From the NCBI GenBank assembly GCA_040289885.1, contig PSLZ01000002.1, forward strand, positions 70,377-134,376: a stretch of 64,000 nt of DNA, in the 5' to 3' direction. Shown piece after piece: positions 47,781 through 53,109 of the stretch. Source of the DNA: Armatimonadota bacterium. GTDB taxonomy: Bacteria; Armatimonadota; HRBIN16. Made by a program: the position numbers and the translations under genes. The notes under the pieces were generated by a model, which searched no databases, was not told where the DNA came from, and worked only from the letters and a program-made list of their open reading frames with translations. The first letter of the stretch is position 1. Each line of letters begins with the position of its first letter.

Positions 47781-48380
47781 ATGGATGCGCAAGTTTGGGA
47801 GTGGCGCGTGACAGCTGGAGAGCACCCCGGGCAAGACAGCGAACAGCAGCTCATAGAGCGTTGCCGCGCGGGCGACATGGAGGCTTTCGGCGTCCTGTGG
47901 CAGGAACACCGCTCCGCCGTGTTCCGTAGTATCCTGGGTATCGTAGGCAACCCCCAGGACGCCGAAGACCTGACGCAGGATGCCTTTTTGCGTGCCTATC
48001 GGGCACTGGGTAGCTTTCGCGGAGAGGCTCAACTGCGCACTTGGCTCATCCGTATCGGCGTGCACCTGGCGATTGACCACGTGAAGCGCAAAAAGGCGCA
48101 CCCCGAGGTGTCCCTCGATTGGGACGTCGGCGGGGCACATGCAGACATTGACCCACATACCGCAGCCGAGCGTAACGAACTGCGCGAAACAGTGCGCAAA
48201 GCGATAGATGCTCTGCCCGCGCATCATCGGGCGGTGATTGTGCTTCGCGACATCGAAGGGATGGACTACTCGGAGATGGCACAAGCGCTGGGATGCAGTG
48301 TCGGCAGTGTGAAACTGCGGCTGTTCCGGGCGCGCCGCCTGCTTAAACAGCGGCTGGAAGTGCTTTTGGAGGGATTGTGA
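47781..48380 (+). CDS. ECF RNA polymerase sigma factor
   Basis: DAEDLTQDAFLRAY...FRGEAQLRTWLIRI; LRDIEGMDYSEMAQALGCSVGSVKLRLFRAR. Confidence 0.93.
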   Translation: MDAQVWEWRVTAGEHPGQDSEQQLIERCRAGDMEAFGVLWQEHRSAVFRSILGIVGNPQDAEDLTQDAFLRAYRALGSFRGEAQLRTWLIRIGVHLAIDHVKRKKAHPEVSLDWDVGGAHADIDPHTAAERNELRETVRKAIDALPAHHRAVIVLRDIEGMDYSEMAQALGCSVGSVKLRLFRARRLLKQRLEVLLEGL

Positions 48381-49123
48381 TGAAGCGGCTACTGTGTCGA
48401 TTGGCGGGATACTACCTCGCGCTGTGCGAGGACGACATAGGGAACGGCTTGCCCGGCTGGGTAAGGCGACACCTGCACGTGTGCGCGCACTGTCAGGCGG
48501 AACTGCAGGCGTACCAGCGCACCAGCCAGACCATGCGCCAGTATGCAAGCCGCTTGCCCGACGCACCACCAACCGGATGGCGTCCACTGCAGGTGCGCGA
48601 GCACGCCAGGCGGAGCGCGTTTCCCCTACAGGTTGCGCTGGCACCCGCTCTGCTGGTGCTGCTGGCGCTAGTGGGAGGATGGGCGCTATGGCACAGCATC
48701 TCTCCACGCGCAGGCGATGTCCACGCGCCGCCCCAGATGGCGCAGGGGGTTCCTCAGCCGAAGTCGCCTTCCGCCCTGCTGGATAAAAAGCCGCAGTTCA
48801 CGTCGCCCGATAACGATAACCGCACCAAACCGGTGCCCGTCAGGCGCATCGTCCCACCCGCGACGCCCAAACCCAATCGCTCACCTCAGTACACGCCCCC
48901 GCCTGCTGGGCGACGCCCGCCAAAGCGCGTCTTGGTCGCTGTTCAACCAGCGCCATCAGCTGCCGCTCCTGCAGGCGAGCAGGCGACTGAAGAGCCGTCG
49001 CTGGAACCGCCGGTGCCCGTTCAGCCGGTGGTGGTGGAAGCGCACCCGGTGGCATCCGCTCCTATCCCGGAAGGCTACGTGATGGAGTCTGCCCGTCCTG
49101 CGACGACCGGCGCCATCGAGTAG
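48377..49123 (+). CDS. Zinc-binding (ZAS/zf-HC2) transmembrane anti-sigma factor
   Basis: HLHVCAHC (HxxxCxxC), a single TM helix, Pro-rich periplasmic tail; overlaps the sigma stop. Confidence 0.88.
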   Translation: MMKRLLCRLAGYYLALCEDDIGNGLPGWVRRHLHVCAHCQAELQAYQRTSQTMRQYASRLPDAPPTGWRPLQVREHARRSAFPLQVALAPALLVLLALVGGWALWHSISPRAGDVHAPPQMAQGVPQPKSPSALLDKKPQFTSPDNDNRTKPVPVRRIVPPATPKPNRSPQYTPPPAGRRPPKRVLVAVQPAPSAAAPAGEQATEEPSLEPPVPVQPVVVEAHPVASAPIPEGYVMESARPATTGAIE

Positions 49124-49136
49124 GAGGCGAACGCCT

Positions 49137-50267
49137 ATGCGTATCCTCATCACCCTCTGGTGTATCGTAGGGTTAGCCCTGTCGGCAAACGCGCAAGGAA
49201 CGCTGGAGTCGCTGGAGCGTGAGATCACCGCGTTGGCGCGAAAGGTTCAGGCTGGAGTGGTCTCCGTAGAAGGGGGCGCACTGGTCGTCCCCAACGCACC
49301 GCCGACCGTTCGCGCGGTACCACCACAGAGCGAAGCCGCCCGTCGCTGGCTGGAAGCCATGCGTTTGCTGAACTTGCCCAGCCCCGTGTCCCGCAAGGGA
49401 AGCGGTTTCATCATTGACCGCGACGGGTGGGTATTGACCAGCGCCGACATCGTGCGCGGGGCGGAAACCTGCACCGTACGGCTCGCCGATGGACAGCGGC
49501 TGAAAGCCCGCGTCGTCAGTATCGACGAGGTGACCAACCTCGCCCTAGTGAAATGCTCCGCTCCCACGCCTCAGCCGCTACCGCTGGGCGATTCCGACAA
49601 GGTGGACGTCGGCAATTTGGTGCTGTGCGTGGGCACTCTCGGCGGCTACGAACGCTCGGTGACGCTGGGGCTGGTATCTGGCAAGGAGCGCACGGGGGTG
49701 CTGGGACAGCGGCAGTTTCTATCCAATCTGCTGCAGGTCAGCGGGTCGGTAGGCGCAGGGGGTAGCGGTGCTCCGGTGGTCAACACACGGGGCGAAGTGG
49801 TGGGTATTATCATTGCCACCATCGCGCCGGGCATCGCGCTCCAGCCGCCGAGTGGAGAGGCAAGCACCTCCCCGCCCAGTTTGGGCACGTCGTTGGAGAT
49901 GTCGCTGTTCGGCTCGGCAGGAGGAGCGCTGGCGGTTCCCATTAACGACGTGCGAGCAGTGCTGGACGACATGCGTGCGGGCAAACTACGCCGTGCGTTT
50001 CTTGGCATCATGCCTGCTGACCGCGACGGCGGCGAAGGTGCCGAGGTGGTGCGGGTTGTGCCCAACAGTCCTGCCGCCCGTGCAGGCATCCGGCTAGGCG
50101 ATGTAATCGTCGCCATCAATCGGCTACCGGTGCGCCGCGCGAGTGACGTGAGCCTCATCCTGCGACGCATGAAGCCTGGTCAACGAGCGGAGATAGAAGT
50201 TCTGCGCGCAACCAACCGCCTCCGGCTCACCGTGCAGGTCGGAGAGCGAGGTTCCAGCGAACCATGA
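49137..50267 (+). CDS. HtrA/DegP-like trypsin plus PDZ protein, apparently catalytically inactive
   Basis: Signal peptide, GSGFII, LGDSD, PDZ (AFLGI, SPAARAGI..GDVI); triad positions read TSAD (His to Asp), TNLA (Asp to Asn), GGSGAP. Confidence 0.85.
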   Translation: MRILITLWCIVGLALSANAQGTLESLEREITALARKVQAGVVSVEGGALVVPNAPPTVRAVPPQSEAARRWLEAMRLLNLPSPVSRKGSGFIIDRDGWVLTSADIVRGAETCTVRLADGQRLKARVVSIDEVTNLALVKCSAPTPQPLPLGDSDKVDVGNLVLCVGTLGGYERSVTLGLVSGKERTGVLGQRQFLSNLLQVSGSVGAGGSGAPVVNTRGEVVGIIIATIAPGIALQPPSGEASTSPPSLGTSLEMSLFGSAGGALAVPINDVRAVLDDMRAGKLRRAFLGIMPADRDGGEGAEVVRVVPNSPAARAGIRLGDVIVAINRLPVRRASDVSLILRRMKPGQRAEIEVLRATNRLRLTVQVGERGSSEP

Positions 50268-50731
50268 CCTATCGAGTGCAAACCATCGGTTTCATCGAAG
50301 AGACGATCGCGCCTTCGTTTACCCTGCCATCGGCTCACGACGGCAAGCCGGTATCCCTCTACTCCTTCCGCCAGCGTCAGCCGGTTGCTCTGCTGTTTGT
50401 GCCGTGGTCGGCGCATGGGCCTCTTGTCCTCGCACAGGTCGAAGCCCTACTACCCGGGTTCCTCGACGCCGGCGCCGCCGTCCTGTTGGTTACCCGCGAA
50501 CCGATAACGGACGCTCCCGCGGTGCCTCTGGTGCTGGTAGACCGTGACGGACAGGTGTTTCGGCGATATGAATGCCACTCTCAGAGCGATCTCTGTTTGT
50601 TCGGGCTGGACCGCTACGGAGCGGTAATCCATCAGGCCGCCTGTCGCGTGGAGCAGTTGGGAGCCAGCCTGCGTGCCCTGCTGGACGCCATCGAGTTCTC
50701 CGAGCGTCAGTGCCCCGAGTGAGGGGTATAA
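50264..50731 (+). CDS. Thioredoxin-fold (AhpC/TSA-like) protein with C-terminal CxxU motif; probable selenoprotein
   Basis: APSFTLPS..DGKPVSL..F, LVDRDG, LDRYG Prx-like motifs; ends CAG TGC CCC GAG TGA GGG GTA TAA = QCPE-U-GV-stop. Ends at 50722 if the UGA is a true stop. Confidence 0.75.
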
Positions 50732-50764
50732 CCACCGCGCCGGTCGGCGTGGAGGAAACACCCC
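50723..50764 (+). promoter_or_regulatory. Bacterial SECIS-like hairpin
   Basis: Lower stem GGGGU/ACCCC directly after the UGA; upper stem CCGCGCC/GGCGUGG with a GGUC apical loop starting 19 nt after the UGA. Confidence 0.65.
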
Positions 50765-50780
50765 TTGCACTCGTCGGGGG

Positions 50781-50957
50781 TTATTTCCCCGCCGCGGCGA
50801 GCATCACGCCATAGAAGTCGACAACCACCACCGGCTCGTCGCCTACCACCTAGGCATCATGCCCGGCGGGGATCAGCGAGACATCGCCCGGGCGACACTC
50901 CAGCTCCGTGCCGTCATCCATCTGTACTTTCAGAACGCCCGACACGTGGCGATATAC
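50781..50957 (-). pseudogene. 3' remnant of a cupin-domain gene
   Basis: HVSGVLKVQMDDGTELECRPGDVSLIPAGHDA*VVGDEPVVVVDF: TAG where this cupin family has GHDAWVVG; 5' part missing. Confidence 0.7.
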
Positions 50958-51078
50958 CGCAAGCACATTAAAAATACTGGCGGATTTTGCCGAAACCATC
51001 TCAAAAACCGGCGATAGGGATCTTTCGTGCACCTGGCGAATACATAGTGTGACCAAAATCTTCTATCAGGAGTGAGAG

Positions 51079-52047
51079 ATGCGGACCGTCACTTTACCGA
51101 ACACCCGCCTGCACGTTTCGGCGTTATGTCTGGGCACCGGAGAGCTAGGGGCGTGGCTTACGGGCAGGGATTCCGAACGCCTTTTGGAGGAGTTCCTGAA
51201 ACTCGGAGGCAACTTCGTGGATACCGCCCACTGCTACGCCTTCTGGCTACCGGCTGGGGCTGGCTGTAGCGAGCGCGAGCTGGGCAGAGTCGTCCGCACG
51301 CTCGGTGTCCGCGACCAACTGGTCATCGCCACCAAGGGTGGACATCCTTCGGGTGGGGCGGCTTATCCGCGCCCAGACCGCTACATGGAGCCAGAACTGG
51401 TAACACGTGACCTGATGGAGAGCCTGGAAAGGCTGGAAATGGAGACGGTTGACCTCTATTACCTGCATCGGGATGACCCTCGTGTACCCATCGATGAGAT
51501 AATCGACGCTCTGAACGGGCATATTCGGGCGGGATGGGTTCGCGCCATCGGTGCCAGCAACTGGAGCACCGCGCGTATCGAGCAGGCGAACCGCTACGCT
51601 AGCGAGCACGGCTTGCGCGGATTCGTCATCTCGCAGGTGCAATGGAGCCTCGCCATCCCGAACTGGCAGGTGACCGCCGACCCCACCACGCGCTACGTCA
51701 CCGAAGAAGATGCCGACTGGTACGCCCGACACGCCATCCCCATCTGCGCCTACACTGCAACCGCGCTGGGTTACTTCGCTGGCAGTGCCAAAGGGGAACA
51801 ATCGTTTCACAACCCGGTAAACGCTCAAAGGCGTGAACGTGCTATCCATCTGGCACAGCAACTAGGGGTTACTGCAACGCAGGTTGCGCTGGCGTGGCTA
51901 CTGCATCAGAAGCCAGTCACCATCCCTATCTTTGGTACCACCAACCTGGAACATCTGCGGGAATGCATGCGCTCCGCCGAGATCGCCCTCACCCCTGAAC
52001 AGGTGCAGTGGCTGGCACACGGAGATCGGTCGTACGCGAGCAGTTAG
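51079..52047 (+). CDS. Aldo/keto reductase
   Basis: LCLGT, DTAHCY, IATKGG, DLYYLHRDD, IGASNW, QVALAWL. Confidence 0.93.
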   Translation: MRTVTLPNTRLHVSALCLGTGELGAWLTGRDSERLLEEFLKLGGNFVDTAHCYAFWLPAGAGCSERELGRVVRTLGVRDQLVIATKGGHPSGGAAYPRPDRYMEPELVTRDLMESLERLEMETVDLYYLHRDDPRVPIDEIIDALNGHIRAGWVRAIGASNWSTARIEQANRYASEHGLRGFVISQVQWSLAIPNWQVTADPTTRYVTEEDADWYARHAIPICAYTATALGYFAGSAKGEQSFHNPVNAQRRERAIHLAQQLGVTATQVALAWLLHQKPVTIPIFGTTNLEHLRECMRSAEIALTPEQVQWLAHGDRSYASS

Positions 52048-52158: not shown

Positions 52159-53109
52159 ATGAACTTCAAACGTCTCGGCAGAACCGGTCTGTGGGTATCG
52201 GAACTGTGTATGGGCTGTATGACCTTCGGCGGGGAAGCGGATGAAGCCACCTCCATCGCCATGGTGGAGCGATGCCTGGAGGCAGGCATCAACTTCTTCG
52301 ACACCGCTAACGTCTACACCGGCGGGCGTTCGGAAGAGATTTTGGGCAAAGCGTTGAAACCGCACCGCGACCAGGTGGTGCTTGCCACCAAGGTGCGCGC
52401 TCGTGTGGCGGAAGGTGCCAACGGCGAAGGGCTATCGCGCTACCACATCATGCGGGAGGTAGAAAACAGCCTGCGCCGGCTGAAGACGGATGTCATCGAC
52501 CTCTACCAAGTGCACTCGTGGGACGAGAACACCCCGCTGGACGAGACGCTGAGCACGCTGAACGACCTGGTGCGCCAGGGCAAAGTGCGTTATATCGGCT
52601 GTTCCAACTTCGCCGCCTGGCAGTTGTGTAAGGCGCTGTGGCTCAGCGACAAGCACGATTGGGCACGCTTCGACAGCATCCAGCCCCGTTACAACCTGAT
52701 CGACCGCGTAATCGAACTGGAGCTCCTGCCGCTGTGCACTGCGGAAGGGGTGGGCGTGATGGTCTACAGCCCGCTTGCGGGAGGCATCCTCACCGGCAAG
52801 TATCGTCCGGGTGAGCCACCCCCGCCTGGCACCCGCGCCGCTGAGAACAAATGGTTCGCCGAGCGACGCGCCCAGCCGCATAACATCGAACGGGCACAAC
52901 GCATCGTGGAGGTCATGAAACGCTTCGACCGCCCCGTGGTGCAAACGGCGATCGCCTGGACCATTAGCAACCCTGCGGTGACGTGTGCCATCATCGGGGC
53001 GCGCAACATGGACCAGCTTAACCTGATGCTGAACAACTGGTGCGGCCCCCTGCCCGCGGAGGAGAAGGCGATACTGGACGAGGCAAGTGCACTGCCACCG
53101 CTTCACTAG
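52159..53109 (+). CDS. Aldo/keto reductase
   Basis: [48 protein letters not shown]. Confidence 0.94.

Follow-up and report, generated by a model that had tools for sequence, protein, structure and literature searches.

A candidate selenoprotein with a near-terminal CPE-U motif and a SECIS hairpin beyond its stop codon in an Armatimonadota genome

A reading frame that very probably continues through UGA

The window analysed here is a stretch of 64,000 nucleotides from the genome of an Armatimonadota bacterium (GenBank assembly GCA_040289885.1, contig PSLZ01000002.1, positions 70,377 to 134,376 of the forward strand), and all coordinates are counted from its first letter. This report concerns a small gene on the plus strand of the window. 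Judging from comparative sequence analysis, it very probably encodes a genuine selenoprotein, decoded by means of a selenocysteine insertion sequence (SECIS) and belonging to a peroxiredoxin-like family marked by a C-terminal CPE[U/C]G motif. The full gene occupies positions 50264..50731 and consists of 155 codons (M1 to C150-P-E-U153-G-V) followed by TAA; homologs align with it over residues 1-155, across an internal TGA. The 3' end reads CAG TGC CCC GAG TGA GGG GTA TAA on the plus strand. The CPE-U motif (50711..50722, plus strand) is formed by Cys150 (TGC), Pro, Glu and the predicted selenocysteine (Sec) 153, whose UGA codon lies at 50720-50722. It is followed by a tail limited to Gly-Val and by the true stop codon (50723..50731, plus strand), the TAA itself occupying 50729-50731. 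With translation table 11 the open reading frame (ORF) is confined to 50264-50722 and gives 152 residues, while the reading of TGA as U gives 155 residues ending in QCPEUGV. An earlier reading of this DNA, made from the letters alone and called below the sequence-only reading, had described a frame ending in Cys-Pro-Glu-TGA, then GGG, GTA and TAA, and had proposed that standard annotation truncates the protein at this point. The order of codons was confirmed, and table-11 gene callers and NCBI records do end these proteins at CPE.

The 155-residue protein was compared with 61 genomes (its own and 60 relatives), read-through of stop codons being allowed. Matches with E <= 1e-3 were obtained in 18 of the 61, including 10 of the 12 other genomes of the genus. 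Among the 11 genus genomes that hold a homolog, the one under study included, ten have TGA at the Sec codon, each with this single in-frame TGA and with residues 1-155 covered. The eleventh, G002, has TGC at the same position and no in-frame stop, and its protein ends in CPECGV. The sequence-only reading had anticipated QCPEC or QCPE-UGA with conserved residues thereafter, and the alignment bears this out: CPE, stop, G[VI] and a second stop in the ten, CPECGV and a stop in G002. Neither TAA nor TAG was ever found at the Sec position of the ten Sec forms. The next codon is GGG in five of them and GGA in five, and the following one is GTA (five), GTG (four) or ATA (one), so that the changes between the UGA and the terminal stop are synonymous or conservative throughout. 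An in-frame terminal stop is always kept, as TAA in five cases, TGA in three and TAG in two. A fixed TGA, a variable second stop and conserved codons between the two constitute the pattern expected of translation through the TGA.

The same picture emerges from protein databases. A word-indexed search returned 22 matches with 57-93% identity, 20 of them 150-153 residues long with 97-98% coverage and two 154-155 residues long with 100% coverage. Ten of the 22 were inspected: eight end in CPE, P0020 ends in CPECGI and P0022 in CPECGV. Four NCBI homologs that end in CPE, from metagenome-assembled genomes of Armatimonadota or Chthonomonadetes, are named 'peroxiredoxin family protein', 'redoxin domain-containing protein' or 'hypothetical protein'.

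The tail was also examined beyond the genus. Metagenome contigs were scanned with a DNA pattern for I-E-x-Q-C-P-E followed by TGA, the downstream sequence being left unconstrained. The scan produced 54 loci, of which 26 are recognised by the profile of a 17-sequence family alignment (A3); the other 28, with short unrelated frames upstream, serve as chance controls. In 26/26 family loci the TGA is followed by Gly and then by [VIAT]-x-[ED]-W-..., like the tails of the Cys forms (CPECGVPEWP...). Gly follows the TGA in 1/28 chance loci.

A hairpin wholly beyond the stop codon

The candidate SECIS core lies at 50735..50752 on the plus strand and is composed of a 5' arm CCGCGCC (50735-50741), a GGUC loop (50742-50745) and a 3' arm GGCGUGG (50746-50752), which form a 7-bp stem. 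This stem-loop begins 3 nucleotides (nt) beyond the stop codon and its loop starts 19 nt after the UGA. As just Gly, Val and TAA come after the UGA, the predicted SelB-binding element is situated entirely in the 3' untranslated region. The constraints given for bacterial SECIS elements in section 5 and the Fig. 2 legend of PMC13188914 are a loop of 3-9 nt, an upper stem of 4-16 bp, a G in the first two loop positions, a distance of 16-37 nt from the UGA and a minimum free energy <= -7.5 kcal/mol. The core agrees with every one of these published values, with its 4-nt loop, 7 bp, 19 nt and, folded alone, -13.3 kcal/mol.

When positions 50715-50790 are folded together, the minimum free energy structure is a long interrupted hairpin of -41.7 kcal/mol (z = -4.84), and 0/200 shuffled sequences are as stable. 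The extended lower stem, which encloses the UGA (50716..50773, plus strand), is found in this genome alone and is not conserved. A small second hairpin at 50776..50790 holds the stop codon of a convergent cupin-like ORF and is probably outside the SECIS. The sequence-only reading had described a two-stem hairpin with a GGUC loop 19 nt downstream of the UGA. The loop and its spacing hold, whereas the two-stem form does not extend beyond this genome, the upper stem alone being conserved. Similarly, the end that it gave to the feature, 50764, cuts through the genome-specific lower stem, which is immaterial to the gene.

The 3' ends of the ten Sec forms of the genus can be aligned around a near-invariant block, AC[CU]GCG[CU]CGGU[CU]GGCG[CU][GA]G, directly after which conservation collapses. 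The conserved element thus corresponds to the upper 7-bp stem with a GGU[CU] loop, and the folds of the relatives differ outside this core. RNAalifold applied to the same sequences gives a 7-bp stem and a 4-nt loop, in which no bulged U was identified; one CG pair is changed to UA on both sides in 2 related sequences, two pairs are changed to G-U wobbles, and a single cell of the alignment is broken. Conservation of the hairpin, on which the sequence-only reading had made its proposal depend, is therefore found in 10/10 Sec forms of the genus, and the stem-loop is absent from the congeneric Cys form, G002, where an unrelated hairpin occupies the position of the SECIS.

A fixed definition of the hairpin was then applied to both kinds of sequences: a stem of >=6 bp, a G in the first two loop positions and a loop starting 12-29 nt after the codon. 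Such a hairpin is present in 32/36 distinct Sec forms versus 3/28 distinct Cys forms, counts that are descriptive, since the sequences are inter-related, and do not amount to a statistical test. The hairpins of the metagenome Sec forms vary in sequence but not in shape, and the stop codon falls within many of them; examples are CCGGUGUA-GGU-UACACCGG at +23 and GUGGCCC-GGU-GGGCCAU at +18. Rfam gave no match at E <= 1 in the interval 50600-50900 of the window; to our knowledge, this database holds no bacterial SECIS model.

An alternative explanation of the locus would be that the UGA is an ordinary stop, that the protein ends in ...QCPE and that the hairpin, located between convergent genes, is conserved for a role in termination or in mRNA stability. 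The annotated ends at CPE agree with it, the hairpin does sit in a 49-nt gap between convergent ORFs, and a weak terminator-like site can be seen at 50762-50780. A mere stop codon, however, should not be TGA in 10/10 genomes when the next in-frame stop uses all three codons, nor should it align with an invariant Cys or precede codons that are conserved up to that second stop. It leaves equally unexplained the Cys-like peptide found after the UGA in all metagenome family loci and a hairpin that tracks the UGA among Sec and Cys forms. Finally, the conserved stem is not followed by a U-tract. An ordinary stop is consequently regarded as highly improbable.

A second alternative accepts the insertion of Sec and makes it conditional. 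The UGA could be a leaky, selenium-dependent switch, so that scarce selenium would lead mostly to a 152-residue form with a single Cys in its tail, the two forms differing in activity. At bacterial UGA codons, Sec insertion is in competition with termination. Here, the true end lies just three residues from the UGA, so that the shorter product would retain the entire fold. The strict conservation of both the SECIS and the tail argues instead that the Sec form is the selected product, and a switch of this type is considered improbable, if less so than an ordinary stop.

Selenocysteine machinery of the genome and of the genus

The genome that contains the window (79 contigs, 99.9% complete) encodes the apparatus required for this decoding. 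The four components listed for verification in the sequence-only reading (selA, selB, selC and selD) were all found, with scores above the curated cut-offs: 582.6 bits for selA, 425.9 for selB, 373 for selD and 72.8 for the tRNA-Sec. The latter was also identified by ARAGORN as a tRNA-SeC with anticodon TCA. These genes are carried by other contigs, in keeping with the earlier remark that the window itself holds no sel gene. Machinery, homologs and hairpin, the three grounds on which the proposal of Sec could have failed, all speak for it, and the UGA at 50720-50722 is almost certainly decoded as Sec, as far as sequence comparison can tell. The decoding would proceed by recruitment of SelB and the tRNA-Sec to the 7-bp GGUC-loop hairpin, the UGA at 50720-50722 being then read as Sec.

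The selD gene of this genome contains one in-frame TGA of its own. The corresponding Sec-UGA (RCAG-U-ASKLGP) is present in 13/13 genomes of the genus (L007, L134-L145) and is followed by a conserved hairpin of about 9 bp, CUG[GA]CGCAG-GU[GU]-CUGCG[UC]CAG, whose loop lies about 33 nt after the UGA; a second small hairpin precedes it. In two genomes, G006 (98% complete) and G010 (77% complete), no ortholog of the peroxiredoxin-like gene was detected by protein or profile search. As these two genomes and G002, which has the Cys form, all keep a Sec-containing selD, other selenoproteins must exist in the genus. The peroxiredoxin-like gene shows Sec decoding to be in use across this Armatimonadota-like genus.

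A widespread family with a constant C-terminal motif

More distant homologs within the phylum (22-30% identity) end in [IL][QE]CPECG[VI] plus 4-7 further residues. The invariant columns of alignment A3 are M1, F19, L21, D93, D116, G119 and the block C150-P151-E152-C/U153-G154. A profile search of the family against 1.84 billion cluster representatives gave 6796 matches at E <= 1e-3, of which 624 at E <= 1e-10; the weaker ones will be generic peroxiredoxins. The C-terminal state was recorded for the 150 best representatives. In 64 of them a CPxCG motif is located near the C-terminus, in 31 another CxxC is found there, 7 end within two residues after a Cys (four of these being CPEC forms with two-residue tails such as CPECGV), 39 stop exactly at ...CPE and 9 have no such motif. 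The 39 ends at CPE, taken from protein records alone, coincide with the truncation point that gene callers give at a TGA. Four Cys-form representatives from elsewhere, P0091, P0119, P0037 and P0092, end two residues past the motif (CPECGV, CPECGI, CPECGT and CPECSI), and the minimal tail is therefore not unique to the genus.

A sample of 401 genomes of the phylum yielded 37 matches of at least 92 bits that reach the end of the profile, 13 with one TGA and 24 with none. Ten of the thirteen belong to this genus and three to another family-level lineage. In that second lineage, locus L079 (G332:C1:2248130-2248546) reads ...INLECPE, stop, GGPVEWA, stop, and has an intact NCPGC at the active site. 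Its nearest hairpin, GCCCA-GUCGAG-UGGGC, starts at a distance of only about 10 nt from the UGA, short of the usual spacing of 16-37 nt. G367 and G377 each show one TGA in the profile match. In the ESM Atlas, the look-alikes of the Cys form P0024 are unnamed clusters or generic AhpC/TSA, redoxin, thioredoxin and hypothetical clusters, drawn most often from Armatimonadota, Myxococcota, Deinococcota, Gemmatimonadota and Nitrospinota. On these sequence matches the CPE[U/C]G peroxiredoxin-like family appears to be widespread.

A peroxiredoxin fold without the canonical active site

The structure predicted by AlphaFold2 from A3 (predicted local distance difference test, pLDDT, 87.7; predicted template modelling score, pTM, 0.83) has disordered residues 1-12, a last helix at 129-148 and a tail, 151-155, with a mean pLDDT of 50. 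The best Foldseek matches in the PDB are peroxiredoxins and oxidoreductases of the ResA/TlpA type, the first being Bcp1 of Sulfolobus (3drn; TM-score 0.78, E 2.8e-8). The modelled fold is that of a peroxiredoxin (BCP/PrxQ-like), as the sequence-only reading had suggested, and distant relatives (L029, L030, L031 and L033) pass the cut-off of the Pfam AhpC-TSA family at 35-68 bits.

The peroxidatic Cys of peroxiredoxins is part of a PxxxTxxC motif at the start of helix 2. It has no counterpart here, since the corresponding segment, FVPWSAHGPLV, holds no Cys. The same segment is where relatives carry a CxxC, and its lack in this ORF had been correctly noted beforehand. Lacking a peroxidatic Cys, the protein is not to be classified among the functional peroxiredoxins. 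The active-site position was compared in 144 representatives no longer than 260 residues: a CxxC is found there in 55, a single Cys in 17 and no Cys in 72, with similar proportions in truncated (Sec) and Cys forms. The C-terminal motif is present in nearly all of these representatives. The canonical site, variably lost, is thus dispensable in the family, and the C-terminal CPE[C/U]G is its constant feature. It is also the only family-invariant Cys motif, and it is borne by the low-confidence tail that follows the last helix.

On this basis, a mobile C-terminal arm may carry a redox centre in which Cys150 and Sec153 are reversibly joined as a selenenylsulfide, with the peroxiredoxin-like body acting as a scaffold or docking domain. 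Where a member keeps an active-site CxxC, electrons could pass between this site and the arm in either direction. This redox mechanism, which is argued by analogy, is considered reasonably probable.

The motif nevertheless lends itself to another interpretation, the main rival of the redox arm, in which the protein is a real selenoprotein whose CPE[U/C]G tail binds a metal, as do the CPxCG knuckles of zinc ribbons and rubredoxins. The metal would be held by the tail alone in a dimer, or by the tail together with the active-site CxxC of some members, and Sec would act as a soft-metal ligand. The 55 of 144 representatives that combine an active-site CxxC with the C-terminal motif would offer four Cys for this purpose. 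Sec has moreover been suggested as a possible metal ligand in UXX-star, SaoB and SaoC, in the part of PMC13188914 that deals with them. The 72 of 144 representatives that have no active-site Cys, like the protein of the window, are left with two invariant ligands, and the modelled scaffold is a thiol-oxidoreductase fold. Redox motifs such as CxxU and UxxC typically show repeated exchange of Cys and Sec at a single position of the CxxC, in agreement with Table 1 of PMC13188914. As for zinc, we know of no precedent for Sec as a ligand of this metal. The metal knuckle is judged unlikely, if less remote than the switch discussed above.

Genomic context

Four genes with ends that overlap or almost touch run in the same direction, and the selenoprotein gene is the fourth of them. 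The first gene of this apparent operon (47781..48380, plus strand) encodes an ECF-type (extracytoplasmic function) sigma factor, with Pfam scores of 63.6 bits for Sigma70_r2, 59.2 for Sigma70_r4_2 and 32.5 for Sigma70_ECF. Its stop codon overlaps the start of the second gene (48377..49123, plus strand), whose 248-residue product has no Pfam or NCBIfam match. This product is a putative membrane anti-sigma factor, by virtue of its position after the ECF sigma gene, an N-terminal H-x3-C-x2-C motif (HLHVCAHC) and one hydrophobic segment. The third gene (49137..50267, plus strand) encodes an HtrA/DegP-like serine protease with a PDZ domain (Pfam Trypsin_2, 95.4 bits; PDZ_2, 51.9 bits), which scores 187.3 bits, below the cut-off, with the NCBIfam model degP_htrA_DO. 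The start ATG of the selenoprotein overlaps its stop codon (ATGA).

The HtrA gene is directly upstream in 9/9 other genus loci examined, Cys form included. Downstream of an ECF sigma/putative anti-sigma pair, translation of the selenoprotein would be coupled to that of an exported HtrA protease. This coupling makes it probable that the selenoprotein is produced within a stress regulon in this genus. The protease has an N-terminal signal-like segment (by eye) and the selenoprotein has none, so that the two proteins probably reside in different compartments. A binding of the HtrA PDZ domain to the hydrophobic C-terminus of the selenoprotein (...U-G-V-COOH) was considered, and the probable difference of compartments speaks against it.

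Outside the genus, the nearest ORF on each side, where called, was recorded for 22 distant loci with the Cys form, which took in 41 of the 79 ORFs that flank them. The neighbours include LexA, SDR, G6PD, DHDPS, permeases and, once, DsbA. Gene context was therefore rejected as a functional clue for the family as a whole, in the absence of a recurrent partner outside the genus, and the link with an ECF-sigma/HtrA stress operon appears to be specific to this genus.

On the other side of the SECIS, a convergent ORF (50781-51056, minus strand), cupin-like when read by eye, contains an in-frame TAG at 50850-50852. Its frame reads ...IPAGHDA, stop, VVGDEPVVVVDFYGVMLAAAGK, stop, the latter stop (50781-50783) being inside the second small hairpin. 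The TAG could reflect a nonsense mutation, a pseudogene or an assembly error. Two aldo/keto reductase-type ORFs follow on the plus strand, at 51079-52047 (Pfam Aldo_ket_red, 189.2 bits) and at 52159-53109, the second being judged by eye from its translation.

Overall interpretation

Taken as a whole, the data can be read as the signature of an undescribed, large, multi-phylum family in which a peroxiredoxin scaffold devoid of the canonical site carries its catalytic centre on a C-terminal CPE[U/C]G(VPEWP) arm. The SECIS would straddle or follow the stop codon, and dozens of database clusters would be truncated at ...CPE. In the genus studied here, the arm would be shortened to U-G-V and the gene would form part of an ECF-sigma/HtrA stress operon. 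For this reading in its full extent, the balance is close to even.

Several observations weigh against the main explanation, that of a SECIS-decoded selenoprotein with a redox arm. The CPxCG sequence is the usual knuckle of zinc ribbons and rubredoxins, and papers on zinc fingers dominate the best-ranked literature titles with CPECG. The window protein scores 24.8 bits with Pfam AhpC-TSA (PF00578), just under the 26-bit cut-off. Since the very sequence of the hairpin is conserved in the genus, its covariation is thin and amounts to 1 compensatory pair, seen in 2 related sequences. The genomes of the genus, like the metagenome loci, are inter-related, and the counts given above overstate their independence. 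A hairpin placed between convergent genes could also serve transcript termination or stability. The SECIS of the genus selD differs in shape and in its 33-nt spacing from that of the peroxiredoxin-like gene. The genome was further scanned for TGA codons that close an ORF of at least 40 codons and have, 12-33 nt downstream, a GGU[CU] tetraloop on a stem of >=6 bp. The 12 matches to this GGUY-tetraloop pattern include no second credible selenoprotein gene besides this one; selD uses a different hairpin, and the remaining selenoproteome was not uncovered by this search. Lastly, no recurrent neighbour was found at the 22 distant Cys-form loci, which offer no functional clue valid for the whole family.

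The practical consequence is an error of annotation, as standard procedures end these proteins three or more residues early and drop a residue that is probably catalytic. A family profile in which the Sec position is marked would allow many records to be corrected at once. The family also provides natural examples of bacterial SECIS elements acting at or past the stop codon and, with a well-folded protein of 155 residues, a small model for CxxU arms.

Comparison with known systems

The family is absent from the models of NCBIfam release 20.0 and from the parts of the published selenoprotein tables that were checked. No NCBIfam family was found at E <= 0.1 for the window protein (P0001), and 12 relatives gave matches far below cut-off to generic peroxiredoxin, ResA and SelL-related models. 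The best of these scores were at most 35.9 bits for SelL_rel_redox (cut-off 120) and at most 22.1 bits for PrxU (cut-off 270). The curated cut-offs of PrxU (NF040737), Prx-SUH (NF045827), WAxxUGC (NF041054) and the SelL-related family (NF040769) were not reached. Literature searches on selenoproteins in Armatimonadota and on CPEC/CPECG motifs, the latter among the best-ranked papers, brought up nothing on this family, which may be listed in sources beyond those consulted. The main text of the deep-Sep paper (PMC12013277) has no mention of it under the terms sought.

Selenoproteins with a thioredoxin fold, a CxxU motif and a bacterial SECIS are already known as a kind. The less common traits of the present one are the location of Sec on a C-terminal arm, away from the canonical active site, and of the SECIS at or beyond the stop codon; it adds to this kind a member in which these traits are combined. 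The closest comparison is with the Sec peroxiredoxins and peroxiredoxin-like oxidoreductases (PF00578), which share the thioredoxin/peroxiredoxin fold, the decoding by a bacterial SECIS and a majority of Cys homologs over Sec forms. In those families the Sec belongs to the N-terminal active site, as TxxU, UxxC, UGC or UxxS (PMC2398784, Table 2; PMC13188914, Table 1), whereas the protein described here has neither Cys nor Sec at this site and carries its Sec three residues from the C-terminus. Prx-SUH (NF045827) is listed in Table 1 of PMC13188914 as a peroxiredoxin-type selenoprotein with CxxU, a likeness that is taken from the table's description and leaves aside the position of the motif. 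Its model had no match at E <= 0.1 on P0001, nor at E <= 0.01 on the 12 relatives.

The position of Sec recalls the UXX-star and KCU-star families (NF041114, NF041211, NF033934) of the same table. Their names imply a Sec beside the stop, within three residues of it, which would place the SECIS at the end of the ORF or past it. A Sec close to the C-terminus combined with a SECIS outside the ORF is therefore, in principle, no novelty. These families have other folds and motifs and no sequence relationship with the present one: despite its U-G-V-stop layout, the hidden Markov models of UXX-star (NF041114, NF041211) do not match it. As for the hairpin, the SECIS of E. coli fdhF has the same loop sequence, GGUC. 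Elements of the fdhF type likewise follow the UGA immediately, as a stem-loop whose small apical loop contains G and U; here, the element is wholly outside the coding sequence and no bulged U was identified in its 7-bp stem.

The mechanism proposed for the arm finds its analogies in the C-terminal resolving Cys of 2-Cys peroxiredoxins and in the C-terminal Gly-Cys-Sec-Gly arm of mammalian thioredoxin reductase, an enzyme whose expression in E. coli made use of a SECIS located downstream of the stop codon. The latter differs by its flavoprotein scaffold, by an adjacent CU instead of CxxU and by its eukaryotic SECIS system, and is an analogy of mechanism only. It nonetheless combines, like the protein of the window, a near-terminal Sec and a nearby Cys on a flexible tail, and illustrates that an untranslated SECIS works.

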